A stretch of DNA of 12,287 nt from a bacterium (GCA_041497675.1 JBGQGY010000111.1:1-12287), one strand, 5' to 3'; shown: positions 1 to 12,287, counted from the stretch's first letter. Numbers and translations: made by a program. Notes: generated from the letters alone by a model not told the origin.

Positions 1-1087
1 CGCCGCCGATGCCGTCCAACACCTCGCCCGCGCGTAGATGACGTTTGGCCGCGGCCAGGCACTCGGCCACGGGCGCGCCGATCGCGCTCATTGTCGACTC
101 GCCAAACAATGCGGCCCGTGCGACCGAGATGGGCGCCTCCAAGCTGGCCAGGTGATACGGGCGGTGCAGGAGGTAGTATGGTCCCGCGCCGGCCTTGAGA
201 TACGCCAGATCGCGGCGCACCGATTCGCTCGATGATGTCACGACGACGAACACGCCCGGTGCCACGTCGCCGACGGCGTACTCAACGGCGCCCCGCCGCC
301 GCAGGATGCCACCATCTCCATGCGGGACGAAGACTGTCAGCAGATCCGCAAGGTTGGCCCGCGGCCCGTGCATACCCAGCTGATCGGGCTGGAGACCGGT
401 GGCGTTGGCCAGCGACGCCATCTCGGCCATGGTTTTGGTCCCATCGACGAACGCGGCCAGCATCCGCGGGCTCATCCCGCGCGCGATCGCCTCGGCTTCA
501 ACGGTCTTCATCGTCGCGGCGCGGTCGAGACGATTGTTCTTCCCCTTGCCCGCACACACGATCTCGAGACCGATCGCCCGCGCAAACTCGACCATCTCGC
601 ACAGCACCGACGGCTCGTCACCGGCGGCGACGGTGTAGATCGTCCCTGCCGCTCGCGCCATCCAGGCGAGCAGCGGGCCAACGGTGACATCGGCTTCGAT
701 GTTCATCGTGATGAACGGTTTGCGCCGGCCGATCGCGGCCAGCGCTAGACGCGCGCCGGCGTCGGGATCTCCGGTGGCGTCGAGGATCGCATCGACCGCG
801 GGTGCATCTACGATCCACCCGGCGCGATCGCTCAGCGCGGCGCGGCCCTCGCGCACGATCCGCGAGACGTCTGCTGAAGTACCGGCCGGCTCCGCGCAGA
901 TCCCCGCGGCGGCGGCCGCGGCCACGGCGCGGTCGACCACGATGTCGCCGACCGCGGCGACCCGCATGCCCGGCAGACCGGCCACCTGGCGCACGAGCCC
1001 GCTGCCCATCTGCCCGGCGCCGATGACGGCGACCCGGATGGGACGACCCTCCCGTTCGAGGGACTGGAGCCGCGAGAGTATCGTCAT
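1..1087 (-). CDS. NAD(P)-dependent oxidoreductase, homoserine-dehydrogenase-like with C-terminal SAF domain (COG4091 type); 3' end runs off the window
   Basis: Not in the ORF track because it has no stop in the window. Manual translation from ATG at 1087: MTILSRLQSLEREGRPIRVAVIGAGQMGSGLV (Rossmann GxGxxG)...DAILDATGDP...MNIEADVTVGPLL...YTVAAGDEP...CAGKGKNN...FVDGTKTMAEMASLANATGL...GMHGP...APGVFVVV...GPYYLLHRPYHLASLEAP...AKRHLRAGEVLDGIGG (start of SAF domain). These motifs are characteristic of the family. Confidence 0.9.
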   Translation of the reverse strand, partial: MTILSRLQSLEREGRPIRVAVIGAGQMGSGLVRQVAGLPGMRVAAVGDIVVDRAVAAAAAAGICAEPAGTSADVSRIVREGRAALSDRAGWIVDAPAVDAILDATGDPDAGARLALAAIGRRKPFITMNIEADVTVGPLLAWMARAAGTIYTVAAGDEPSVLCEMVEFARAIGLEIVCAGKGKNNRLDRAATMKTVEAEAIARGMSPRMLAAFVDGTKTMAEMASLANATGLQPDQLGMHGPRANLADLLTVFVPHGDGGILRRRGAVEYAVGDVAPGVFVVVTSSSESVRRDLAYLKAGAGPYYLLHRPYHLASLEAPISVARAALFGESTMSAIGAPVAECLAAAKRHLRAGEVLDGIGG

Positions 1088-1119
1088 GAACAAATGTTCG
1101 TGATTGAATAAATGTTCAT
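1086..1119. promoter_or_regulatory. Tandem palindromic operator (two TGAA-N6-TTC[G/A] sites, 18 bp apart) directly upstream of the oxidoreductase
   Basis: ATGAACAAATGTTCGT (1086-1101) and TTGAATAAATGTTCAT (1104-1119) lie in an AT-rich patch within otherwise very GC-rich DNA. Each site is an imperfect palindrome and the two form a direct repeat. Confidence 0.7.
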
Positions 1120-1240
1120 CTCGTACATACCCTTACTCTGTTGTCCCCGCGAATCCTGCTGGATCGGCGGCGCCGTGTGGGGGCCGGTATGGGTGAGCTA
1201 CGTTGCGGCGGGGGTCAGGTGTGCGGTAATGTGCGGGGCT

Positions 1241-2608
1241 TCACACGGTCTCGGCCTGGCCGACCACCGGCACAGACGCCGGAATGCCGGCTGCCGTCAA
1301 TGCCGCTGCGTACGCCGTCGCGGGCGCCTCGTCGCCGTGGACACAGAACGCGCGGCCGATCCGCGGCACGCGCCGGGCCCAGGCGAGTAGTTCGTGACGA
1401 TCGGCGTGCGCGCTGAACGCATCGGCGCGCTCGACCCGAATCTTTACCTCGTACGGCTCGCCGTAGATCCGCACCGGGGAGACGCCGTCTTCCAGGCGGC
1501 GCCCCAGCGTGTGTTCGGCCTGGTAGCCGACGAAGAGCACGGTCGACCGCGGATCGCCGATGTGATGCCGTAGATGATGGAGGATGCGGCCGGCCTCGGC
1601 CATCCCCGACGTGGCCACCACGACAAACGGCCCGGTCTTCTCGTTGAGCGCCTTCGAGTCTGCATCGGCGCGCACGTAGTGGAGCCCTTTGAACCCGAAC
1701 GGATCGTGCTGCTCCAAGTGCTCGCGCACGTCGTCGTCAAAACATTCGGCGTGCACACGAAAGATGTCCGTCGCATCGATCGCCATCGGGCTGTCGACGT
1801 ACGCGTCAATGCGCGGTAGCGCCCCCGCCTCGCGCTGCGTATGCAATACGTAGACGACCTCTTGCGTCCGGCCGATCGCAAACGCCGGGATCAGCACCAC
1901 GCCGCCGCGCGCCGCCGTTTCCTTGATCACGGTGGTCAGGTGGGCGACGGCGCCGGCCCTCGGCAGGTGCTCGCGATTGCCGTACGTCGATTCGGTGATC
2001 AGCACGTCCACGTCAGGCATGACCTCCGGGTCGCGGATGATCGCGCTGTCCGGCCGGCCCAGGTCGCCGGTAAACCCCAACCGGCGGCCCTCGGCCTCCA
2101 CCAGCACCATCGCGGAACCGAGGATATGCCCCGCGTCGCGATACGTGACGGTCATAGCCCCGAAGTGGAAGGGGTGATCGTAGGGGATCGACACCAAGCG
2201 TCTGATCGCGCGTTCCGCCGCCGGCGCATCATAGAGCGGCTCGACCGCGGGCTCACCTTTCCGACGGCGGATTCTGTTGACGAAGTCGGTGTCCTGCGCC
2301 TGGACCTTCGCGGCGTCACGAAGCACCAGCGCGGTCAGGTCACGGGTGGCCGGCGTGCAGTAGATCGGCCCGCGAAACCCCGATGCCACCAGCGTCGGCA
2401 GGTTGCCGCAGTGATCGAGGTGCGCGTGGGAGAGAATGACCGCGTCGACGTCCGCCGCGGCGGTTGGAAACGTCCGATTGCGCTCGGCCGACTCCGCGCG
2501 CCGGCCCTGGAAGAGCCCGCAGTCGAGATACACCCGTTGGCCCGCGGTCTCGACCACGTGCAGGGATCCCGTAACCGTCCGGACGGCGCCGTGAAATGTG
2601 AGTCGCAT
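1241..2608 (-). CDS. Metallo-beta-lactamase fold / beta-CASP ribonuclease (YSH1/TTHA0252-like), 455 aa
   Basis: Start MRLTFHGAVRTVTGS at 2608, a typical N-terminus that overlaps the upstream stop (TGATG). Motifs: LDCGLFQG, SHAHLDHCG (HxHxDH), AGHILGS, FTGDLG, ESTYG, PAFAIGRTQE, SGMAEAG, GYQAEHTLGR, FSAHAD, VHGD. Confidence 0.93.
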   Translation of the reverse strand: MRLTFHGAVRTVTGSLHVVETAGQRVYLDCGLFQGRRAESAERNRTFPTAAADVDAVILSHAHLDHCGNLPTLVASGFRGPIYCTPATRDLTALVLRDAAKVQAQDTDFVNRIRRRKGEPAVEPLYDAPAAERAIRRLVSIPYDHPFHFGAMTVTYRDAGHILGSAMVLVEAEGRRLGFTGDLGRPDSAIIRDPEVMPDVDVLITESTYGNREHLPRAGAVAHLTTVIKETAARGGVVLIPAFAIGRTQEVVYVLHTQREAGALPRIDAYVDSPMAIDATDIFRVHAECFDDDVREHLEQHDPFGFKGLHYVRADADSKALNEKTGPFVVVATSGMAEAGRILHHLRHHIGDPRSTVLFVGYQAEHTLGRRLEDGVSPVRIYGEPYEVKIRVERADAFSAHADRHELLAWARRVPRIGRAFCVHGDEAPATAYAAALTAAGIPASVPVVGQAETV

Positions 2609-4251
2609 CAGGCCGCCGGTTTGCGCAGGCTGCCGACCAGGAAGCCTGCGGCGACCCGGCTCCCCAACCAGGCGAGCCACCGTGTCAGAAACCAGGCCTG
2701 ACCCGGCAGGATCAATCGATAGAGTTGATCCGCAAGACGCCGGCGCAAGAGGGGTGGGGCGTCGGCCGGGATGTCACCCGGGCCCACGTGGCTGAAGTCA
2801 CCGGCCGGCACATACGCGGCCTCGGCGTCCGGCACATACGCGAGACTCGGGCATTCTTTGGTCAACTGCTCGATCACCACGCGCGCGTCCGCGCGGCCAC
2901 GGCGCCAGTCGTGCTCGCGCCACCGCTCATCGAAAAATCCGCCGAAGTTGCCCAGAAAGTCGCCGGCCAGGCTGCCGTATGCCGGCGCGATAAGATGCAG
3001 TTTCATCTCGACCTTCTTTCGCAGCCCGGCGACGTTTTCCAGCACGTAGGCCAGCGTAAGGAACAGATCGGTCTTGGCAGGATCGTCGCGAATACGGTCG
3101 AGCGCCGCGCTGCCGGTTGAGAGCATTGGGCCCAAACGGCCGATGTTCGCTTCGAGGTGCCGGCGGGCCACCTCGGGGTGGGCCGGCACGCCGGCATGGT
3201 CGTACTCGCCCTTGACGGCCCCAATCTTCGCCGCCACGGCGCCGAGCCGGCCCGCAATTGCCGCGCCGTCTGACGAGGGAATTGCCGCGACGATCTCGGC
3301 CAGCGCCGCGATCAGACCGTCCTGCCATTCGAGGCGCGAGTTGGTGCGCAGGGCGCGGATCCAGTCGCGTTTGGATGATTCGCCGAGCACCGCGCTGACC
3401 AGGCGATCGAGTACCAGTCGCGCGCCCAGCGGGTCTGGGAGATTGACCTCAGGCGCGGCCGGGGCCACGTACGGGTCGATGAGGACGTAGTAGCGGCGGT
3501 CGCCGATGATCGCGGGGTCTTCGGCTTCGAGCTGGTCGACCATGTCCCTCGCCAGACCCACGGGCTCGTTGTTGAACATCCCACCGTCGACGTAGGTGAA
3601 CGCGCGGGTGCCGGCGTCCCTATAGATCTCGGAACGACGATAGTCGGCCAATCGTCGCTCCAGACGGACAGGAGCGAACGCAAACGGAAATGCGCCGCTC
3701 GCCACGGCGGCCCGTGCAACCGCCTGCCAGTCGGGCGCGCCGCCCGTCCGAGCGCCGGGGCGTGCCTGGAACACGATCCAATCCGAAAAGATCGTCGTGT
3801 CAAACCCGTTGCGGGCATTCGCATACCCGAGTTGGTACCTGACGCCGTTGAGATTCGACAGGGCAAACGCCATGCGCAGCAGCGGCGGGCTTGCCGGGTG
3901 CGGGGAGGGCACGGCGGGTGCCCGCTCGATCACCTCGCGCGCGAGCGACCAGATGTAGCGAGACGAGAGCAGGCCGGCCTCGGGATCCCCTTCGATCAGA
4001 CGCATGAAACTGATGTCGCGCACCCAGGCGCGATGGAGTTCGTCGACGCGCGTGGCGTCATCATACAATGCGCGGGCCGTCACCGCTGCGGTCATCGAAC
4101 CGGCCGACGCGCCGGTCAGCACGTCGATGATCACGGGCTCGGCCGCGTCACGACGATGCGACAGCGCCCACAACACCTCATACACTGCGCCGGCCTGGTA
4201 GGCGCCCAGCGAGACCCCGCCGGCCAGGGTGAGCGCAAGACGGGTGGTCAT
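2608..4251 (-). CDS. Patatin-like phospholipase family protein, 547 aa
   Basis: Start MTTRLALTLAGGVSLGAYQAG (Gly-rich oxyanion loop) at 4251, with an ATGA overlap with the sppA stop. GASAG nucleophile elbow, ASGAFPFAF, YVDGGMFNNEP (catalytic Asp DGG). The C-terminal FGGFFDERWREHDWRRGR resembles the DUF3376-type tail. Confidence 0.9.
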   Translation of the reverse strand: MTTRLALTLAGGVSLGAYQAGAVYEVLWALSHRRDAAEPVIIDVLTGASAGSMTAAVTARALYDDATRVDELHRAWVRDISFMRLIEGDPEAGLLSSRYIWSLAREVIERAPAVPSPHPASPPLLRMAFALSNLNGVRYQLGYANARNGFDTTIFSDWIVFQARPGARTGGAPDWQAVARAAVASGAFPFAFAPVRLERRLADYRRSEIYRDAGTRAFTYVDGGMFNNEPVGLARDMVDQLEAEDPAIIGDRRYYVLIDPYVAPAAPEVNLPDPLGARLVLDRLVSAVLGESSKRDWIRALRTNSRLEWQDGLIAALAEIVAAIPSSDGAAIAGRLGAVAAKIGAVKGEYDHAGVPAHPEVARRHLEANIGRLGPMLSTGSAALDRIRDDPAKTDLFLTLAYVLENVAGLRKKVEMKLHLIAPAYGSLAGDFLGNFGGFFDERWREHDWRRGRADARVVIEQLTKECPSLAYVPDAEAAYVPAGDFSHVGPGDIPADAPPLLRRRLADQLYRLILPGQAWFLTRWLAWLGSRVAAGFLVGSLRKPAA

Positions 4252-5234
4252 ATCAGCAGGTACTGCACGCTGAACGGCTCGCGCAATCCAGGATAGAGAT
4301 CCGCGGGGGTCCACAGCCATCCGCGGACGCGGTTCGCGGTGCCCCCGAGCAGCGACCGCAGCAATCCCTCACCACCATATTCCACGACCCGCGCCTGAGT
4401 GAGCCCTGCGAGCTTCATCGCGGCGTCGATGGCCTCGGGCAGATGCCCCATGGCGTCGACGAGACCGGCCTGCATGGCCTGCTGGCCCGTGTAGATGCGC
4501 CCGTCCGCCAGCGCCAGCACTTTGGCCCGATCCATCTTGCGGCCCTGTGCGACGATCGTGACAAACCGCGCGTACGCCTCGTCGACGAGCCGCTGGAAAA
4601 TCGCGCCCTCTTGCGGCGTCATAGGACGGTTCGGGTTGCCGAGATCTTTGAAGGCGCCGCTCTTGAAGATGATCGTGCGGATCCCGATCTTGTGGCTCAG
4701 ATCCTCCAGATTTGGCAGCGCCACGATCACGCCGATGCTGCCGGTGACGGTCGTCGGGTCGGCCACGATCTGTTCCGCGGCGGCGGCGATGTAGTACCCG
4801 CCCGAGGCGGCGGTCTGAGTCATCAGGGCCACCACGTGCTTCCCCGCGCGGCGCAGCGCCGTCACCTTCTGGTGCACCTCGTCGCTGGCCACGACCGACC
4901 CTCCGGGCGTGTCGAGTTCGAGGATGACCGCCTTCACCGCACCGTCACGCATGGCGCGGTCCAACAGCTGCACGACCGCGCGGCTCGCCGCGCCGGACGC
5001 AAAGACCGAGAATCCGGCGCCCTCGCGTGTGATCGGCCCAACGATCCGGACGATCGCAATCTTGTTGGGTCCGTCACCGCTGATCGGGCGCTCCGGCCCG
5101 GGCGAGAGCCCGCTGCCGGCCGCGCCGCCCGCCGCACCGGCCAGAAACCCCATCACACCGCCGAGTAACGCGGCGACCGTCAGGGCTGCCACCGACAGGA
5201 CGATGCCCACAGTGACCCATACCGCTTGTTTCAT
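4248..5234 (-). CDS. sppA: Signal peptide peptidase SppA, short form (peptidase S49), 328 aa
   Basis: ATG at 5234 with GGGAGG Shine-Dalgarno upstream. N-terminal transmembrane helix. Motifs KIAIVRIVGPI, LELDTPGGSV, AASGGYYIA (catalytic Ser), TGSIGV, KSGAFKD (Lys), LADGRIYTGQQA, GLVD. Confidence 0.93.
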   Translation of the reverse strand: MKQAVWVTVGIVLSVAALTVAALLGGVMGFLAGAAGGAAGSGLSPGPERPISGDGPNKIAIVRIVGPITREGAGFSVFASGAASRAVVQLLDRAMRDGAVKAVILELDTPGGSVVASDEVHQKVTALRRAGKHVVALMTQTAASGGYYIAAAAEQIVADPTTVTGSIGVIVALPNLEDLSHKIGIRTIIFKSGAFKDLGNPNRPMTPQEGAIFQRLVDEAYARFVTIVAQGRKMDRAKVLALADGRIYTGQQAMQAGLVDAMGHLPEAIDAAMKLAGLTQARVVEYGGEGLLRSLLGGTANRVRGWLWTPADLYPGLREPFSVQYLLI

Positions 5235-5260
5235 CGGGCTCAGCCTCCCAGAAAATGTTC

Positions 5261-6292
5261 CTATCTCAAGATGAGAAACATCAAGACGAAATACGCCACC
5301 AGCATGACAACACCAATGGGGACGGCGGCCACAGCCCACTCCTTGCTGCGGATCTTCAGCTTGCCGGCCGCGATGATGTTTGGGATGTTGCCCGGGATCA
5401 GCAGGCCGCCGCTGACAAGCAATCCCATCAACACCGCCCTGACCTGCTCTGCCGACATGCGGGGGCTGATCTCCGCCGCGGTCAGGGTGGCGTTGTCGAG
5501 GATCGCCGACACCATGTTGATCCAATAGAGAATGCGCGCGTCCAAGCCAATCACGTACCGATCGATCATCGGCTTGAACCCCTCGCCCAGGAACGTCAGC
5601 GCCATCACAAACACGTAGACGCGGACCGCGCGCTCGGCGACGTCCCGCAGGGACGCATACGGCGCCGGTGCGGTCAGCCCTCGATCGTGAGGCGGGAGCG
5701 TCACGCCACGAACGAACAGCAGGCCGCCAAGGACCACCACCCCCGGCACGACGTACCAGCCGAGCAGCCGGGCCAGGTACCAGAAGTCCTGCCCGAGCTT
5801 GGCGATCGCGATGGTGCTGAGTGGCTCGCCGATCGGCGTGAGGACTGCGCCCAACCCAATCGCATAACACGCGATCACGACAAAGCGCATCTCGTCCTTG
5901 CGCTCCAGACGCAGGATCGACGCAAACTCGACGAGCACCAGGGCGGCGATGATTGCCGTGATGACGCTCGACGCCAACCCAAGGATGATGACGGTCGCCG
6001 CCAAGAGCGCGCGAGGGCCGATCCGCCCGACCAGCCAGGTGACGCCGGACGCCAACCGCCGCTGACTCCGTGCGAATACCACGCCGGCGACGAAGACGGC
6101 GACCGTGATAGGGAGGGGGTGTGTGAGCGCGTCACGGATCAGGTGCGCGGTGAAGGCGTGGGAGGCCAGCGCCGAGAGGACGCCCATCACAAACAGGAAC
6201 GCCTCGAGGTTGTGCTCGATCCGCCGGTCCAGGAAGGGGGCGGCGAGGACGATCAGCAGGATGATGAGGTTGGCGGTCACGTCAAACGGCAC
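5261..6292 (-). CDS. DUF1646 family polytopic membrane protein, putative cation transporter of the IT (ArsB/NhaD-like) superfamily, 343 aa
   Basis: GTG start. Highly hydrophobic. Motifs IEHNLEAFLFVMG, LTPIGEPLSTI, SAILDNATLTAAEI and GGLLIPGNIPNII; the paired hairpin motifs are typical of the IT-superfamily internal repeat. Confidence 0.85.
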   Translation of the reverse strand: MPFDVTANLIILLIVLAAPFLDRRIEHNLEAFLFVMGVLSALASHAFTAHLIRDALTHPLPITVAVFVAGVVFARSQRRLASGVTWLVGRIGPRALLAATVIILGLASSVITAIIAALVLVEFASILRLERKDEMRFVVIACYAIGLGAVLTPIGEPLSTIAIAKLGQDFWYLARLLGWYVVPGVVVLGGLLFVRGVTLPPHDRGLTAPAPYASLRDVAERAVRVYVFVMALTFLGEGFKPMIDRYVIGLDARILYWINMVSAILDNATLTAAEISPRMSAEQVRAVLMGLLVSGGLLIPGNIPNIIAAGKLKIRSKEWAVAAVPIGVVMLVAYFVLMFLILR

Positions 6293-6355: not shown

Positions 6356-6444
6356 GGAGGAGTTCGGGAGCCTGGTACCCGGACGGTCTCGAAAACCGTT
6401 GGGCGTTCTGCGCCTCGTGGGTTCGAATCCCACCTCCTCCGCCA
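6356..6444 (+). tRNA. tRNA-Ser (anticodon CGA), class II with long variable arm, encoded CCA
   Basis: Cloverleaf folded by hand: acceptor GGAGGAG/CTCCTCC, D stem CGGG/CCCG, anticodon stem ACGGT/ACCGT with loop CT-CGA-AA, variable stem GGGCG/CGCCT, T arm GTGGG-TTCGAAT-CCCAC, discriminator G, then CCA. 89 nt. Confidence 0.96.
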
Positions 6445-6501
6445 TCTTCACACAGAACCGCGGGCGATTTCCTTTGCGATCGTTCTCTGCGGAGGCACCG
6501 T

Positions 6502-7971
6502 ATGCATCGGGCGTTCCCGATCCTGGCTCTGGTCGTGCTCGCCGCGGTCGCAGCGGCCACCGTGCCGGCGCTCGGCCTGCTGGCCGCCCCTGCGGCCGTG
6601 GCATGGGGCCGCGGCTTCGCGGCCGGCGGTCTGGCGGCGTTGCTGGCCACGCTCCTTGCGCTGCGCTCCACGCCCTCCGACCGTCTGAGCGCCGTCGTCG
6701 CGGTCGCCGCCATGCAATTCGCCGGGCTGGCGGCGGTGGTCGCCGCGGTCCACTGGTCGGGCACCGCGATCCTGGACGGGCTGGCGGGGATCGCCGCCGG
6801 CTGGCTGGTCACCTCGCTCGTTCTGCACCGCGGGGCGCAGAGTGTGGCGGCGTCCGGCGTGGGATTCGTGACGGCGCTCTGCGCGGCGGCGGCGCTGGGA
6901 CACTTCCGCCAGGCGGCCGCGGCCGTCACGCCGCCGTGGATATCCGCGGCGCTGGTGTTGGGCGCGCTGGGCGCGCTGACGCTGCTGGCGATCGGCATCG
7001 CGGCCGCGTACTCCGAGCGCCGGCGGGTCGCCCCCGAGTCGCCCCGCGTCACGCGAGACGTAGTCCTGATCGTCCTCGCATGTGTGATCGCCGCCGGCGC
7101 CGCATACGCTGTGGCCACTCGTACGCTGCATGAACCACGGTTCCTCGCGGCCGCCGGGATCGGGCTTGCGCTTCCTCTGGTGCTGGCGTGGCTGCTGCTC
7201 GACGATGAGCATCTGCAGGCGCCCGGCGGCTTTTCGCTGGACGCCGCGCTCGGTGTGCTCGTGACGCTCGGCGCCGCCATCGCGGCCTTCTACGCGCTGG
7301 CGGGCTACGGCATCGGTATCATGCTCATCGCCGCGTCGCTGCCGGCAGGGCTCATCCTCGCGCTGGGGGTTCCCCGCGGCGCCACCGCGCCGGGCGATCG
7401 CCTCGTGCAGTTGCTGCTCTTTGGCGCCGTTTTGGTCGTCTATCGCGTCTTCGTGCAGCGGTTCCAGGACGATCTGGGCGCCGCGGCGCTGACCGATCAT
7501 CTCGCGATGTTCAGCATGATCGTCGGCGCCGTCCTCCCCTCAATCCTAGGCGGCATTCTTGGACGCCCGTCCGACGCGCAGTCCGATCCCACCGCCGAAA
7601 CGTCGATCCGGCTCGTCCTGACGTTCGCCGGCGCGACCGCCTTCGGCGCCGCGCTGCTCGGGCTGTGGGGACCGAGGGCCGGGCTGGGATTCTTGAACGG
7701 TCTGTTGCTCGGTGCGGCGTTGCCCGGAGGAGGCTCACGGACCGGGCTGCTGGCGCTGGCGGCGGCGCTGCCGCTGATCCAGTGGTCGCACACGCTGCTG
7801 GCCTTCTCTGCACAGACCCGCGCCGAGAAGGCCCGCGTGGTGATGTGGCTCGTGGGGATCGCCATTGCCGTCGTTGCGGGAGCCGATCTCTGGGGACGCC
7901 TGACCCGCCGCGCGAGACCCAACGCCGCAGGTCAGCTCATCCAGCCCAGCGGCGAAGGAGGAGAGCGATGA
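6502..7971 (+). CDS. Polytopic membrane protein (about 15-16 predicted TM helices), 489 aa; possible non-catalytic membrane pyrophosphatase (HppA)-fold homolog
   Basis: GGAGG Shine-Dalgarno at 6491-6495, ATG at 6502 (MHRAFPILALVVL...). Nearly continuous hydrophobic segments. Stop overlaps the next start (ATGA at 7968-7971). The gene itself is well supported; the fold assignment is inference (see findings). Confidence 0.85.
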   Translation: MHRAFPILALVVLAAVAAATVPALGLLAAPAAVAWGRGFAAGGLAALLATLLALRSTPSDRLSAVVAVAAMQFAGLAAVVAAVHWSGTAILDGLAGIAAGWLVTSLVLHRGAQSVAASGVGFVTALCAAAALGHFRQAAAAVTPPWISAALVLGALGALTLLAIGIAAAYSERRRVAPESPRVTRDVVLIVLACVIAAGAAYAVATRTLHEPRFLAAAGIGLALPLVLAWLLLDDEHLQAPGGFSLDAALGVLVTLGAAIAAFYALAGYGIGIMLIAASLPAGLILALGVPRGATAPGDRLVQLLLFGAVLVVYRVFVQRFQDDLGAAALTDHLAMFSMIVGAVLPSILGGILGRPSDAQSDPTAETSIRLVLTFAGATAFGAALLGLWGPRAGLGFLNGLLLGAALPGGGSRTGLLALAAALPLIQWSHTLLAFSAQTRAEKARVVMWLVGIAIAVVAGADLWGRLTRRARPNAAGQLIQPSGEGGER

Positions 7972-10900
7972 ACCGGCGCCGTTGGCCCACCGCCGTTGTC
8001 GCGCTGCTGTGCTTGGGCGCCGCGCTCGTCTACGCCACGTGGCAGGAGCCGCCCGTGGGCCGTATCGAGGGCCGGGTGGTCGAGGCGGGTAAGGGCCTGC
8101 CGGTCGCCCGGGCCACGGTCGTCCTGACCTCGTTGGACGCCGATGGAGCGGTCACATCCCCGGTCCGCTACGTCCGGGCCGGACCGGACGGCCGGTTCTT
8201 CTTCACACAAGTGCCGACGGGTTCGCAGCAGGTGTCGGCGTTTCTCGACGCCTCCTCGGTCCAAGAAGCAGAAGTGACCGTCCAGGAGGGCGTGACGGCG
8301 GTTGTCACGCTCGCACTCGAAGCTGCGCGGCCATCGCTGCAGATGGCCGGCCCAACCCGTCACTTCACGACCGCCGAACGGCTCGTGCTCCCGGTCCGCG
8401 GATATGTCGAGAAAGGCGCGGCCAAGCGCGCTGTGCGTGTGCGAGTCTACCGGACCCGGATGTCGCATCTGCTGAGCCACCGGGTGACCGCGCAGGCGCT
8501 GGCGCAACTGGGCGCCGAGTGGGCGACGAACACCAAAATCCCCGACGTGCTCTTGAAGCCGCCGGCAGGTGATCGCCCGAGGCTCGTCCTCGAGCGCGAT
8601 GACGCGATCACCGAGGCGGGCGCGGAAGGTTTCTACAACAAGGTCATCGACCTTGGCCGGCAGGGAACCGGTCTGTATCTGGTCGAGGCCGCGTATGCCG
8701 ACACGACCGTCGCGACATGGCTGCTGGTGTCAGACACGGCCCTGGTGATCAAGAGCGCGCCGGGCGAGATGCTGGGGTTCGTGACCGACGCGGCGACCGG
8801 CCGGCCGATCGAGGCAAGCGCGGTGACGATCTTCCAGAACGGCAAGGCACTGGCGCAGGGCAAGACCGACACCAACGGTCTGGTCACGCTCGCCGTCGCC
8901 AAAGACCTTCAGGAGTTCTTCCTCGTCGCTGTGGCGCAGCGCGGCGACGACGAAGCCGTCGTCGGCCGGACCGAGTATCGTTTCGAGCACTCCGGCGAAT
9001 TCACGATCTACGCGTACACCGACCGGCCGGTCTACCGGCCGGGGGATCGCATCCACTACAAGGCGATCGTCAGGAAGAACGGCGCCCGGGGATTCGACTA
9101 CTCGGTGCCGTCGGGACAGACCGTGACGATCGAGGTGCGCGACCCCAACGGCGAGCCGATCTTGCGCGAGCAGCGCCGCACGAGCGCGCTCGGCACATTC
9201 TCCGGTCAGGTGGATCTGAGCCCCGAGGCGCGCACCGGCGCGTACGCCATCGTGCTCGTGACTGGCGGCACGACCGCCACGTACGATGTCGCCGTCGCCG
9301 CGTATCGCAAGCCCGAGTTCGCGGTGACCGTCACGCCGCAACGCACCGTCTACACACGGGGTGACACGATCACGCTCAACGTGTCGGCGCAGTTCTACTT
9401 CGGCGCGCCGGTCGCCGGCGGCACGGTCGAGTATTTCGTCTACCGATCGCCGGACTGGGCGTACGAGTATCTCGACCGCTCGGATGTCGAGCCCGAAGAC
9501 GCCTCGATCCTCTTCCCCGGCTATCGCGGCGACGGCCAGCCCGTGACCCGCGCCCAGGCGCAACTCGACGCGCAGGGCAAGGCGGTCATCACGTTTCCCG
9601 CCGACGTCCCAGACGAAGCCGACGCCCCACAGGCGCAGGTGTTCACCGCGTCCCTCGTTGTGCGCGATCCGGCGGGCCGGGAAGTCACCGCGGATCAGAC
9701 GGTGCGGGTGGCGGCCGGTGATGTCCGGCTGGCCGTGGAGACGGACGGATATCTCGCCGCGCCCAACACCCCGGTCGGCATTACGGTGACCTCGCAGGAT
9801 CATCAGCGGAAGCCCGTCGCCAATCTTCGGCTCGAGCTGGAAGTGCTCTACTGGACATGGACCCCCGGACGGTCCGGCTACTCGCTGGAGAAGGTCCAGA
9901 CGGTGCCGGCCGTCACCGGACCCGACGGCCGCGCGCAGGTGAGAGTCAATTTCCCGCGCCAGGGTTCGGTGCAGCTTCGCGCCAGAGCGGTCGATGGGCG
10001 TGGCCGCACGGTCCGCGCTTCCACGTACCTGTGGGTCGCCAGCGACGCCGCCGCAGACCTCGGAGGGCGTTATGCTGACCTCTCGCTGGCGACCGACAGG
10101 CGTCAGTACCGTTCCGGTGATGTGGCCAGGGTCTTGATCAATACTCAGCAGATCGGTCAGACGGTATTGCTCACCGTCGAAGGATCGCGCATCTATCGGG
10201 CCATCGCCATCCCGATCACGCGGCCCAGCACGGTCGTGCGGCTGCCGATCGAGCGCGAGTTCGGGCCGAACGTGTCCATCGAGGCGCTCTACGTCAGCGG
10301 GAAGCGTCTGTCGTCCAGCAGCGTCGGCATCCGAGTGGCGACGCCCGAGTCGGAGTTGCAGGTGTCCATCCGGTCGGATCGGGCACGGTACGGGCCGGGC
10401 GATCGGGCGACATACACCGTGGAGATCCGCGACGCGGCCGGCAAACCGCAGCAGGCTGAATTCTCGCTCGGTGTCGTCGATGAGGCCATCTACGCCATCC
10501 GCGAAGACGACCCGAAGGCGCTGCGCGAGGCATTCTACCCGCGGCGGTCCAACCGGGTACGCACCAGTTTCTCCTTCGCGTTGTTTTACCTGGGCGACGC
10601 CGACAAGGCGGAAGCCCGCATCGCCACGCGGTCCAGGTTCCGCGACACGGCGTTCTGGCAGCCCGCGCTGCAGACCAATCCTCTCGGCCGGGCGACGGTG
10701 TCGGTCACGCTGCCCGACAACCTGACCACATGGCGGGCAACGGTCGTGGCACACACCACGGACACGCGTCTGGGGCGCGCCACCCATACGCTCGTCGCCG
10801 CCAAGGACTTCTTCGTCCGGCTGGACACCCCACGGCTGCTCACGGAGCACGATCGCTCGCGCATCCTGTTAACTGTTCACAACGACACCGCCGCGGCTCA

Positions 10901-12287
10901 GCAGGCGACCGCCCGGTTGCAGATCGAGGGTCTCGTCGTGGAGGGCGGGGAGACGCACACGCTCGCCCTGGCCCCGCGCGCGTCGGGGCAGGTCGCCTGG
11001 CCGGTGACCGCCCGGCAGGCCGGCACCGCGAAGATTCGCGCCACCGCCTGGACGACCGGCGGTAGCCGTCAATACACCGACGGCGTCGAAATGTCGGTGC
11101 CGGTGCGTCCGCACGGCCGGCTGCAGGTCGAAGGCCGGGCCGGGGACGTCACCGCCGACCTGCCGGCGACCGAAACGTTCAACGTGGAGGCCGCGGCACA
11201 CCCCACGGGGAGTTCGTTGACGCTCCGGATCAGCCCCTCGGTCATCTCCTCGGCGGTCGGCGCGTTGGACTACCTCATTGGATATCCGTATGGCTGCGTG
11301 GAGCAGACGATGAGCCGGTTCTTGCCCACGGTGCTCGTGCAGCGAACGCTGCGTGTGGCCGGCATCCCCAACCCGGCTCTTGCGGCGCAGATCTCGCAGA
11401 TGGTCCGCGACAGCGTAGCGCGTCTGTATCGTTTCCAGCACGAGAGCGGCGGGTGGGGATGGTGGGAGTTCGACGAAGATCATCCGTGGATGACGGCCTA
11501 CGTCCTCTACGGGCTGGCGGTGGCCAGGGCCGACGGTCACCCGGTCAGTACCGACGTCCTGGAGAAAGCCCAGAAGGCCGCGCTGGAGTTGACCAAGCTG
11601 GCCGACCCCGATACGAGGATGTTCCTGCTCTACGCGGTGGCGCTCTCGGGCCGGCCCGACGCCGTCCGGAGCGAGTTGACCGGGCCCAGTCCGGCGGAGT
11701 TGGGTCCCCACGGTCTGGCCTACCGCGTCCTGCTGGCAAAGAGTCTGGGTCAGAATCCGCGCCCGGCGCTCCAGGCGCTGCTCCAGCGGGCTGTGGCGAA
11801 GGACGGGATGATCCACTGGGGCACGGCAGATCTCTGGGACTGGGATGCCTCAATGGCCACCGCGCTGGGTCTGCGCGCGATGCTGGCGGTCAACCCGCAG
11901 GATGTCCGCATCCCGCAGGTTGTGCGGTGGTTGATGCACAACCGGACCGGCCAGTATTGGTGGAGCACCCGGAACACGTCGTGGGCGCTGGCTGCGCTCG
12001 CCGACTATGCCGACACAGAACGTCGGGCCGCGGCCGAGCGCGGTACGACAGTCGAACGCGGGGCCGCGTCACTGGGGGGCGAGCTGCGCGTGCGGCTCAA
12101 CGGCCAGGTGATCCAGACGTATCCCCTCACGCGGGCGGCGGCGGGTGCCCCCGACCTCATGCTGCGAATCCCCGGCTCGTCCCTACGCCCGGGACGCAAT
12201 ACCGTGACGCTGGAACGCTCGGGCGGCGCCAGCCGGGTCTTCTACACCATGCAACTGCGGCAGGTCGTCGCCATGGACGAGATTCCG
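7968..12287 (+). CDS. Bacterial alpha-2-macroglobulin (MG2 / A2M / thioester domains) with N-terminal carboxypeptidase-regulatory-like domain; 3' end runs off the window (at least 1440 aa)
   Basis: Not in the ORF track because it has no stop in the window. AGGAGG Shine-Dalgarno. MNRRRWPTAVVALLCLGAALVYATW signal/anchor. Motifs in the same frame: YTDRPVYRPGD (~9015), AYRKPEF (9300), GVVDEAIY (10470), FRDTAFW, LPDNLTTWR, YPYGCVEQTMS (CVEQ at 11295-11306), QHESGGWGWW, WWSTRNTSWAL. Confidence 0.95.
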   Translation, partial: MNRRRWPTAVVALLCLGAALVYATWQEPPVGRIEGRVVEAGKGLPVARATVVLTSLDADGAVTSPVRYVRAGPDGRFFFTQVPTGSQQVSAFLDASSVQEAEVTVQEGVTAVVTLALEAARPSLQMAGPTRHFTTAERLVLPVRGYVEKGAAKRAVRVRVYRTRMSHLLSHRVTAQALAQLGAEWATNTKIPDVLLKPPAGDRPRLVLERDDAITEAGAEGFYNKVIDLGRQGTGLYLVEAAYADTTVATWLLVSDTALVIKSAPGEMLGFVTDAATGRPIEASAVTIFQNGKALAQGKTDTNGLVTLAVAKDLQEFFLVAVAQRGDDEAVVGRTEYRFEHSGEFTIYAYTDRPVYRPGDRIHYKAIVRKNGARGFDYSVPSGQTVTIEVRDPNGEPILREQRRTSALGTFSGQVDLSPEARTGAYAIVLVTGGTTATYDVAVAAYRKPEFAVTVTPQRTVYTRGDTITLNVSAQFYFGAPVAGGTVEYFVYRSPDWAYEYLDRSDVEPEDASILFPGYRGDGQPVTRAQAQLDAQGKAVITFPADVPDEADAPQAQVFTASLVVRDPAGREVTADQTVRVAAGDVRLAVETDGYLAAPNTPVGITVTSQDHQRKPVANLRLELEVLYWTWTPGRSGYSLEKVQTVPAVTGPDGRAQVRVNFPRQGSVQLRARAVDGRGRTVRASTYLWVASDAAADLGGRYADLSLATDRRQYRSGDVARVLINTQQIGQTVLLTVEGSRIYRAIAIPITRPSTVVRLPIEREFGPNVSIEALYVSGKRLSSSSVGIRVATPESELQVSIRSDRARYGPGDRATYTVEIRDAAGKPQQAEFSLGVVDEAIYAIREDDPKALREAFYPRRSNRVRTSFSFALFYLGDADKAEARIATRSRFRDTAFWQPALQTNPLGRATVSVTLPDNLTTWRATVVAHTTDTRLGRATHTLVAAKDFFVRLDTPRLLTEHDRSRILLTVHNDTAAAQQATARLQIEGLVVEGGETHTLALAPRASGQVAWPVTARQAGTAKIRATAWTTGGSRQYTDGVEMSVPVRPHGRLQVEGRAGDVTADLPATETFNVEAAAHPTGSSLTLRISPSVISSAVGALDYLIGYPYGCVEQTMSRFLPTVLVQRTLRVAGIPNPALAAQISQMVRDSVARLYRFQHESGGWGWWEFDEDHPWMTAYVLYGLAVARADGHPVSTDVLEKAQKAALELTKLADPDTRMFLLYAVALSGRPDAVRSELTGPSPAELGPHGLAYRVLLAKSLGQNPRPALQALLQRAVAKDGMIHWGTADLWDWDASMATALGLRAMLAVNPQDVRIPQVVRWLMHNRTGQYWWSTRNTSWALAALADYADTERRAAAERGTTVERGAASLGGELRVRLNGQVIQTYPLTRAAAGAPDLMLRIPGSSLRPGRNTVTLERSGGASRVFYTMQLRQVVAMDEIP
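12018..12071 (+). repeat. Degenerate in-frame 18-bp tandem triplication encoding ERRAAA-ERGTTV-ERGAAS
   Basis: Units GAACGTCGGGCCGCGGCC, GAGCGCGGTACGACAGTC and GAACGCGGGGCCGCGTCA. Units 1 and 3 match at 14 of 18 positions. Confidence 0.4.

Follow-up and report, generated by a model that had tools for sequence, protein, structure and literature searches.

Bacterial alpha-2-macroglobulins (A2Ms) are thought to constitute a simple immune system of the cell envelope. The literature searched describes A2M operons of two types, yfhM-pbpC and mag (yfa). The type I pair yfhM-pbpC of Escherichia coli encodes the A2M YfhM (ECAM) and PBP1C, and a trap-and-repair mechanism has been proposed for it in the available text of two papers (PMC5764988; PMC4498604). 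The A2M of this pair has a CxEQ thioester, a bait region, a thioester domain (TED) and bMG domains, belongs to a diderm cell in which it is tethered to the inner membrane, and is encoded in one operon with a peptidoglycan cross-linking enzyme (PMC5764988, available text). The mag operon of Pseudomonas aeruginosa encodes MagA, B, C, E and F in addition to the A2M MagD; the available text of its description gives MagD no thioester and the six genes no cell-wall enzyme. MagB, which has one predicted helix and a large soluble part, sets the location and stability of MagD (PMC5764988, available text). Here we describe an A2M operon in a 12,287-base stretch of bacterial DNA (GCA_041497675.1 JBGQGY010000111.1:1-12287), from here on called the window, which is the entire contig C111 of a 3.97-Mb, 98.6% complete genome assembly (G000). 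The source bacterium probably belongs to Candidatus Sysuimicrobiota (CSP1-3).

The operon begins at position 6502 of the window, continues beyond its end on contig C102, and encodes a polytopic protein with the fold of membrane pyrophosphatases (mPPases), an A2M, and a protein with VanW and G5 domains. Among trap-and-repair operons of bacterial A2Ms it represents a variant, distinguished by a predicted pseudoenzyme partner that has not been described before. Like yfhM-pbpC, it combines an A2M that has the thioester, bait region, TED and bMG domains, and that is predicted to be anchored in the inner membrane of a diderm cell, with a likely peptidoglycan cross-linking enzyme. Unlike YfhM, which has a lipobox, the A2M appears to be anchored by a transmembrane helix, and the wall enzyme is the VanW+G5 protein instead of PBP1C. 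An mPPase-fold protein of 16 or 17 helices is added upstream and coupled to the A2M by gene overlap, whereas no such protein is reported for yfhM in the literature searched. The operon resembles mag in that an operon-encoded membrane protein would partner the A2M. It differs from mag in having three conserved genes, a putative wall enzyme, an A2M with a thioester and its own anchor, and a polytopic partner. None of the three conserved genes encodes a Mag-like protein according to Pfam, and no match to PF01871 (AMMECR1) was found anywhere in G000.

To the two operon types in the literature searched, the window operon adds a third architecture, composed of a helix-anchored thioester trap, a putative cross-linker of the VanW type where yfhM-pbpC has PBP1C, and a polytopic partner that resembles an mPPase reduced to its membrane core. 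The trap-and-repair idea is supported by this arrangement, because PBP1C would have been replaced independently by another peptidoglycan cross-linking enzyme. In the main texts of the literature searched, neither VanW nor an mPPase-like protein is described as a partner of an A2M, and the main text of the paper on Sysuimicrobiota genomes does not mention macroglobulin, pyrophosphatase, peptidoglycan or outer membrane. To our knowledge, all other proteins described with the mPPase fold are ion pumps, and the operon provides a testable partner and genetic context for an mPPase-fold pseudoenzyme.

The operon contains three conserved genes

The first gene of the operon (6502-7971, plus strand) encodes the membrane protein of 489 residues. 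Its ATG is preceded, at a distance of six bases, by a GGAGG sequence resembling a ribosome-binding site (6491-6495). The TGA stop codon of the gene (7969-7971) overlaps the ATG of the A2M gene (7968-7970) in the sequence ATGA (7968-7971), and an AGGAGG Shine-Dalgarno sequence (7956-7961) is located within the end of the membrane-protein gene, six bases upstream of the A2M start. Both features had been recognized in the initial annotation of the window and are confirmed in the sequence. GGAG-type motifs occupy the position of this Shine-Dalgarno sequence in the orthologues. A stop/start overlap of the form NTGA is kept at each of the 11 orthologous junctions that related genomes contain (G numbers denote genomes, L numbers loci, and C numbers contigs), and it is therefore not a chance arrangement. 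The ATGA overlap indicates, as far as sequence can tell, translational coupling of the two genes.

The first 1440 codons of the A2M gene (7968-12287, plus strand) remain open to the end of the contig. The last 141 nucleotides of the window (12147-12287), which lie inside the A2M gene, are identical to nucleotides 1-141 of contig C102, and this exact overlap of contig ends looks like an unresolved join in the assembly graph. The remainder of the A2M gene is located at C102:1-585, and the VanW+G5 gene begins at base 585, where it overlaps the A2M stop codon in the sequence GTGA. The join of the two contigs is supported by the sister genome G002, in which the membrane-protein gene, the A2M gene and the VanW gene are on a single contig. 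The initial annotation proposed a two-gene system; the coupling of the membrane-protein gene to a thioester A2M stands, but with the VanW+G5 gene the system has three genes. Similarly, the annotation set the locus apart from the pairing with pbpC, which is correct in that the operon contains no pbpC, but a wall enzyme of another family is encoded past position 12287. No pbpC was found 3' of the A2M gene in G000 or in any locus that reaches that far, a search that did not extend to the rest of the genome. The presence of the VanW+G5 gene in the operon means that the A2M has a partner that is likely a cell-wall enzyme, as in yfhM-pbpC.

The distribution of the genes was determined in 61 related genomes of one order, G000 included, and in a sample of 94 genomes from the phylum. 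These counts take in one unpublished genome, G019. The membrane-protein gene is present in 12 of the 61 related genomes (11 of 60 without G019), the A2M gene (E<=1e-20) is found in the identical 12, and the phylum sample likewise contains 12 genomes with the membrane-protein gene. In all 11 other related loci (10 of 10 without G019), the A2M gene is directly 3' of the membrane-protein gene on the same strand, so that the outcome named in the initial annotation as refuting its proposal, homologues mostly lacking an adjacent A2M, was not observed. The VanW gene adjoins the A2M gene in ten of the twelve operon genomes, and contig ends interrupt the remaining two; it follows the A2M gene in each of the six related loci with enough sequence. 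The VanW family is more widespread than the operon, since it is found in 35 of the 61 genomes, mostly as a longer paralogue encoded elsewhere.

A search with the family profile of 1.84 billion cluster representatives (50% identity) yielded 383 clusters at E<=1e-3, 153 of them at E<=1e-30, most of which are full-length. A word-index search identified nine relatives of the membrane protein, and its repetition with a wide profile returned only these nine close relatives. A scan of the genome collection with a narrow alignment gave four loci, all of known relatives. Wherever the source names a family member, it is called "hypothetical protein".

A distant subfamily of the membrane protein, approximately 30% identical to the window protein, is represented by 11 metagenome loci. 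The A2M gene is located downstream in nine of them, and the ATGA overlap is present in eight. One of the remaining two loci (L054) ends 140 nucleotides 3' of the membrane-protein gene and encodes, as judged by eye, an A2M-like N-terminus consisting of a helix followed by R-Q-D-T-P-V-G. The other one, L052, is considered below. In both metagenome loci that reach far enough, the VanW gene follows the A2M gene with GTGA or ATGA overlaps. The membrane-protein, A2M and VanW genes are the only genes common to the two lineages, and they very probably constitute a three-gene module.

Sources could be named for a few of the 20 clusters of distant members that were looked up: two belong to Chthonomonadaceae and one to Armatimonadota. 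In locus L058, a spacer of approximately 140 nucleotides with GGTGTTCA tandem repeats (4376-4520) separates the membrane-protein gene from the A2M gene, and the A2M frame starts approximately 140 nucleotides later. Locus L052 encodes a family member of 570 residues (2303-4015), which is preceded by a gene for an SRAP (SOS-response peptidase) protein and followed by DNA of lower GC content and a small exported open reading frame.

The membrane protein has the mPPase fold without the hydrolytic center

The amino acid composition of the membrane protein is typified by 23% Ala, 17% Leu, 12% Gly and a single Lys. The gene evolves with a ratio of nonsynonymous to synonymous substitution rates (dN/dS) of 0.25 relative to the copy in G002 and 0.33 relative to that in G001, and the corresponding value for the A2M gene is 0.19 in both comparisons. 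As judged from these sequence comparisons, the membrane-protein gene is real, conserved and under purifying selection.

The sequence of the membrane protein has no Pfam or NCBIfam match at E<=1, the mPPase family H_PPase (PF03030) included, nothing in PADLOC, and no usable match in the ESM Atlas. The search of the Protein Data Bank (PDB) with the family profile (hmmsearch) did not return an mPPase or any other protein. The AlphaFold2 model calculated from an alignment of 120 sequences has a pLDDT of 91.4, a pTM of 0.92, and 16 long helices. A model based on nine sequences (pLDDT 39) was useless and was replaced by this one. The only significant Foldseek matches of the 120-sequence model are mPPases (E ~1e-4, probability 1.00, query-normalised TM scores 0.50-0.63). 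VIA-align superimposed the model on Thermotoga maritima PPase (6qxa_D, chain residues 49-726) with a Z score of 36.6 and a root-mean-square deviation of 2.7 Å over 426 residues. All 21 mPPase entries had Z scores of 26.8-36.6, and the next, unrelated fold had a Z score of 7.3. Alignment of the family profile to 12 genuine mPPases of related genomes (hhalign) gave a probability of 93.2% and an E-value of 2.9e-7 over 405 columns. The predicted structure therefore has the 16-helix membrane fold of mPPases, and its sequence does not match the mPPase sequence model. Based on the model, the membrane protein is a remote homologue of mPPases, and it shares the membrane-core fold, with 426 of 489 residues aligned, with the enzymes of T. 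maritima (4AV3/6QXA) and Vigna radiata (4A01/5GPJ). Unlike these mPPases (PF03030), the window protein is approximately 200 residues shorter, has an extra C-terminal helix, and carries its conserved residues on the predicted outer side.

The initial annotation described the protein as mPPase-like, which the structural and profile alignments corroborate, and as dead, which is in accord with both the lack of a PF03030 match and the loss of hydrolytic motifs. The first two of the cytoplasmic Asp/Lys motifs with which mPPases bind Mg-PPi (the GGG.. and DNVGDNVGD segments) face a deletion in the hhalign alignment, where the window protein has a short loop (residues 108-114). The third, C-terminal motif, GDTVGDP.KD, is outside the aligned part. 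D92 and D332 are the only acidic positions conserved in the 120 family members, and the near-invariant positions are glycines, P346, R315, R320, D332, R440 and R466. Judging by its sequence, the membrane protein lacks the entire cytoplasmic center for the hydrolysis of pyrophosphate (PPi), and therefore it is presumably a pseudoenzyme.

G000 also encodes a genuine mPPase (hppA, C81:9647-11755), and hppA was found in 39 of the 41 relatives searched. The window gene is therefore an addition to the pump and not its replacement. Unlike hppA, which is a separate and near-universal gene, the family of the window gene is linked to A2M, with the exception of L052. When the phylum was searched, the family profile gave one marginal extra match, which is the genuine mPPase gene of G021. 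Several relatives have two genuine mPPase genes, which belong to length classes of approximately 635 and 700 residues and are arranged in tandem in G003 (G003:C1:319517-323741).

Conserved residues of the membrane protein cluster near its predicted periplasmic side

Structural and profile alignments place the first helix of the window protein on transmembrane helix 2 (TM2) of mPPases and helix 15 on TM16, and leave the last helix (residues 440-470) as an addition. Except in G000 and G002, every orthologue carries one more N-terminal helix, equivalent to TM1, including that from G001, which belongs to the same genus. The 5' end of the gene was probably removed from G000 and G002 by a rearrangement, because the similarity of their upstream sequences ends approximately 45 nucleotides before the start codon (window 6445-6502, compared with L013/L014).

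The N-terminus of mPPases is located outside. With the topology derived from mPPases, the inner ends and loops of the window protein contain 17 Lys and Arg residues compared with 7 on the outer side. Of 70 positions conserved in at least 70% of the sequences, 43 are in the outer half of the protein, including D92, R136, a G-Y-G-x-G turn, R315, R320, D332, Q427, W428 and R440. There is no conserved charged residue at mid-membrane depth, and the conserved charges lie at a relative depth of at least 0.75, near the outer side. Because the conserved positions cluster in the outer half, conservation appears to have shifted away from the pump's active site in the cytoplasm and towards its periplasmic mouth, where the ectodomains of A2M and the VanW protein would be located.

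The A2M is a putative thioester trap with a predicted membrane anchor

The full-length A2M has approximately 1590 residues and a thioester like that of type I A2Ms. Its Pfam domains are CarboxypepD_reg, bMG3, MG2, bMG5, A2M_BRD, A2M and TED, and a bMG10 domain is encoded on the C102 part of the gene. The protein has the MG array and bait region of type I A2Ms, and the bait-region domain (PF07703, E 1.7e-20) comprises residues 705-843 (10080-10496, plus strand). The thioester motif CVEQ, residues 1110-1113 (11295-11306, plus strand), was correctly reported as intact in the initial annotation and is within the TED (PF07678, residues 1092-1188, E 5e-17), as in type I A2Ms. The best relative in the PDB is E. 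coli YfhM (E 2e-23, residues 346-1235).

The N-terminus of the A2M contains a putative transmembrane anchor formed by approximately residues 8-24 (7989-8039, plus strand). In 19 aligned A2M N-termini, a hydrophobic helix is followed by the motif [Q/E]-[E/D/Q]-x-P-x-G, which is Q-E-P-P-V-G in the window protein, and P29, G31 and G35 are invariant. The 19 N-termini have no conserved lipobox cysteine; Cys15 of the window A2M is replaced by Phe in G002 and is absent in most. The A2M is presumably held in the inner membrane by its N-terminal helix and not by a lipid anchor. Omp85 and LpxC were found in G000, and therefore the bacterium is a diderm and the A2M trap would face the periplasm.

The VanW+G5 protein is a likely L,D-transpeptidase

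The VanW+G5 protein of the G000 operon has 262 residues, within the range of 262-271 residues for the operon VanW proteins, and an N-terminal membrane anchor. Its VanW domain (PF04294) was detected with an E-value of 4e-43 and 146 bits, compared with a cut-off of 27, and is followed by a G5 domain; the same arrangement is found in six related loci. The VanW domains of Ldt4 and Ldt5 from Clostridioides difficile are L,D-transpeptidases with a Cys-His-Asp triad, and in Ldt4 the VanW domain precedes a G5 domain (PMC11348318, available text). C103 (in GGGVCQ), H124, H126 and D138 are invariant in seven operon VanW proteins and are candidates for the residues of the published triad. The operon protein resembles Ldt4 and Ldt5 in its VanW domain and N-terminal membrane anchor, and Ldt4 in the order of the VanW and G5 domains (PMC11348318, available text). 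Unlike Ldt4 and Ldt5, it is much shorter and encoded behind an A2M gene, and no PG_binding_4 domain was detected in the operon VanW proteins. From this domain analysis, the VanW+G5 protein is likely an L,D-transpeptidase.

Proposed trap-and-repair mechanism

The docking of the A2M by the membrane protein, suggested in the initial annotation, was addressed by predicting the structure of a complex of the membrane protein with A2M residues 1-135, using separate alignments, three runs and three controls. The ipSAE scores of the three runs were 0.72, 0.47 and 0.26 (median 0.47), and the best of the three controls scored 0.00. The partner had a pLDDT of 72 or more, and no less than 91% of contacts were shared between runs. 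The prediction was graded as weak support for docking: of 157 solved complexes, 116 attained the mark that it reached, as did 2 of 215 mismatched pairs, and scores of 0.60 or less were obtained for only 18 of the 116 passing solved complexes and for both passing mismatches. We regard the chances of a docking role of the membrane protein for the A2M as evenly balanced.

Based on the gene content of the operon and the predicted structures, a mechanism can be outlined. The operon probably encodes a trap-and-repair module in which the mPPase-fold protein serves the A2M as a platform and the VanW protein is the repair enzyme. The mPPase-fold protein would form a platform in the inner membrane that docks and positions the A2M, and perhaps also the VanW enzyme, through its conserved outward-facing surface. 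The helix-anchored A2M would face the periplasm as a protease trap, and the VanW enzyme would restore cross-links in damaged peptidoglycan. The logic of the module would be that of the trap-and-repair mechanism proposed for E. coli yfhM-pbpC. The fold, the missing catalytic motifs, the order and coupling of the genes, and their strict co-occurrence are results of the present analysis, whereas we infer that the proteins touch, how they are oriented in the membrane, and what they do biochemically. A physical partnership is favored because of the upstream position of the membrane-protein gene, the conserved four-base overlap, the identical phyletic pattern, and the outward-facing conserved surface.

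Several observations weigh against the platform mechanism. L052 contains no A2M gene within 1.25 kb downstream of the membrane-protein gene and is the sole locus without one; therefore, the membrane protein can occur by itself. Because the A2M carries a transmembrane anchor of its own, a dock is not obviously needed for its attachment to the membrane. The predicted complex passed only weakly, with runs spread from 0.26 to 0.72, and a fusion of the membrane protein with A2M was not found among longer proteins, which is weak evidence. The copies of the membrane protein in G000 and G002 begin after the position of the first helix, and the assignment of its inner and outer sides depends on the topology assumed for mPPases.

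The association of the genes may be merely transcriptional, so that the membrane protein has an unrelated job, such as transport, and shares a promoter with the A2M and VanW genes. The L052 family member without A2M is consistent with this explanation; however, the presence and absence of the membrane-protein and A2M genes are identical in 61 genomes, gene order and the four-base overlap have been kept between lineages that are approximately 30% identical, and no further gene is common to those loci, which leaves it the least probable of those considered. The upstream position and translational coupling of the membrane-protein gene, which provide 1:1 co-synthesis, would also suit a helper in the export or assembly of the 1590-residue A2M that promotes its insertion, folding or protection without staying bound. 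Pseudomonas MagB is needed for the stability and membrane location of the A2M MagD (PMC5764988, available text). However, no insertase or chaperone with the mPPase fold is known, and the folds that follow mPPases in the structural comparison have Z scores of 7.3 or less. We consider such a helper very unlikely, and it is hard to distinguish from docking with sequence data.

The remaining explanations derive an activity from the ancestry of the fold. The mPPase-fold protein could be an active transducer with a kept ion path or gating, which senses or powers the conformational change that proteases trigger in the A2M or sends a signal to the cell, for example to a kinase. The fold derives from that of an ion pump, the most conserved polar residues cluster on inner-ring helices at the outer mouth, and a HAMP histidine kinase is encoded downstream in some genomes and an OmpR-type regulator in G000 and G029. 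However, there is no conserved charge at the mid-membrane depth where mPPases have their ion gate, and neither the remaining related loci nor the metagenome loci have the two-component genes. A transducer of this kind is quite unlikely, and the sensing, signalling or ion flux that the initial annotation had envisaged found no support. Descent from a pyrophosphate-binding protein could equally suggest that the membrane protein binds a pyrophosphate lipid of the outer leaflet, such as undecaprenyl pyrophosphate or lipid II, and serves the VanW arm of the module and not the A2M. The near-invariant R136, R315, R320 and R440, together with D332 and H333, are on the predicted periplasmic side, and the operon partner of the E. 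coli A2M uses lipid II (PMC5764988, available text). Nevertheless, the ancestral PPi site was cytoplasmic and is deleted, and therefore an outer lipid site would be a new invention; the membrane-protein gene is coupled by overlap to the A2M gene, not to that of VanW; and L,D-transpeptidases use mature peptide stems, not lipid II (PMC11348318, available text). We find lipid binding in the service of VanW highly improbable.

We speculate that the pump may have been recycled, which is unlikely as a full account of the operon. The former exit channel for ions would open at a conserved, outward-facing pocket of Arg, Asp and His residues, and this pocket would hold either a pyrophosphate lipid or the acidic segment of the A2M next to the membrane. 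It would couple the capture of a protease by the thioester trap to a membrane event, such as an ion leak, signalling or the recruitment of VanW. If this were true, the operon would be the first example of a bacterial A2M system that contains its own membrane transducer, and a non-catalytic pyrophosphatase scaffold would be assigned its first function.

Genomic surroundings of the operon

The upstream boundary of the operon is formed by a tRNA-Ser(CGA) gene identified by ARAGORN (6356-6444, plus strand), which is outside the module and ends 57 bases 5' of the membrane-protein gene. A promoter scan detected no sigma-70-like site upstream of the operon, a result that is uninformative for this phylum. 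Of the sequencing runs listed as containing the stretch, 20 are of DNA and none is of RNA. In G029, a tRNA-Ser(CGA) gene lies approximately 4 kb 5' of the operon, and in G026 the immediate upstream neighbor of the operon is a tmRNA gene (tRNA/tmRNA positions other than that in the window: L017 14457-14546 and L016 11399-11748). The tRNA and tmRNA neighbors, together with the patchy distribution in 12 of 94 genomes, hint that the operon behaves as an island that genomes acquire and lose at such sites.

The VanW gene of G000 is followed (C102 1535-5437) by a gene for an exported protein of 307 residues without a known family, and then by a strong terminator-like hairpin (C102:2515-2542) and genes for a HAMP histidine kinase, an OmpR-type regulator and signal peptidase I. 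The gene for the 307-residue protein recurs 3' of the operon in G001, G029 and G019, that for the kinase in G001 and G029, and that for the OmpR-type regulator in G029. The 307-residue protein and the kinase were not found at operon loci of other lineages. The two-component system was considered as a member of the module and rejected, since the downstream set is confined to G000, G001, G029 and G019.

The genes upstream of the operon are on the minus strand (window 2-6292) and have no relation to the module. Their products are a DRL-type oxidoreductase, a beta-CASP metallo-beta-lactamase RNase, a patatin-like phospholipase that includes a DUF3376 part, a membrane peptidase of the S49/NfeD type and a DUF1646 membrane protein.

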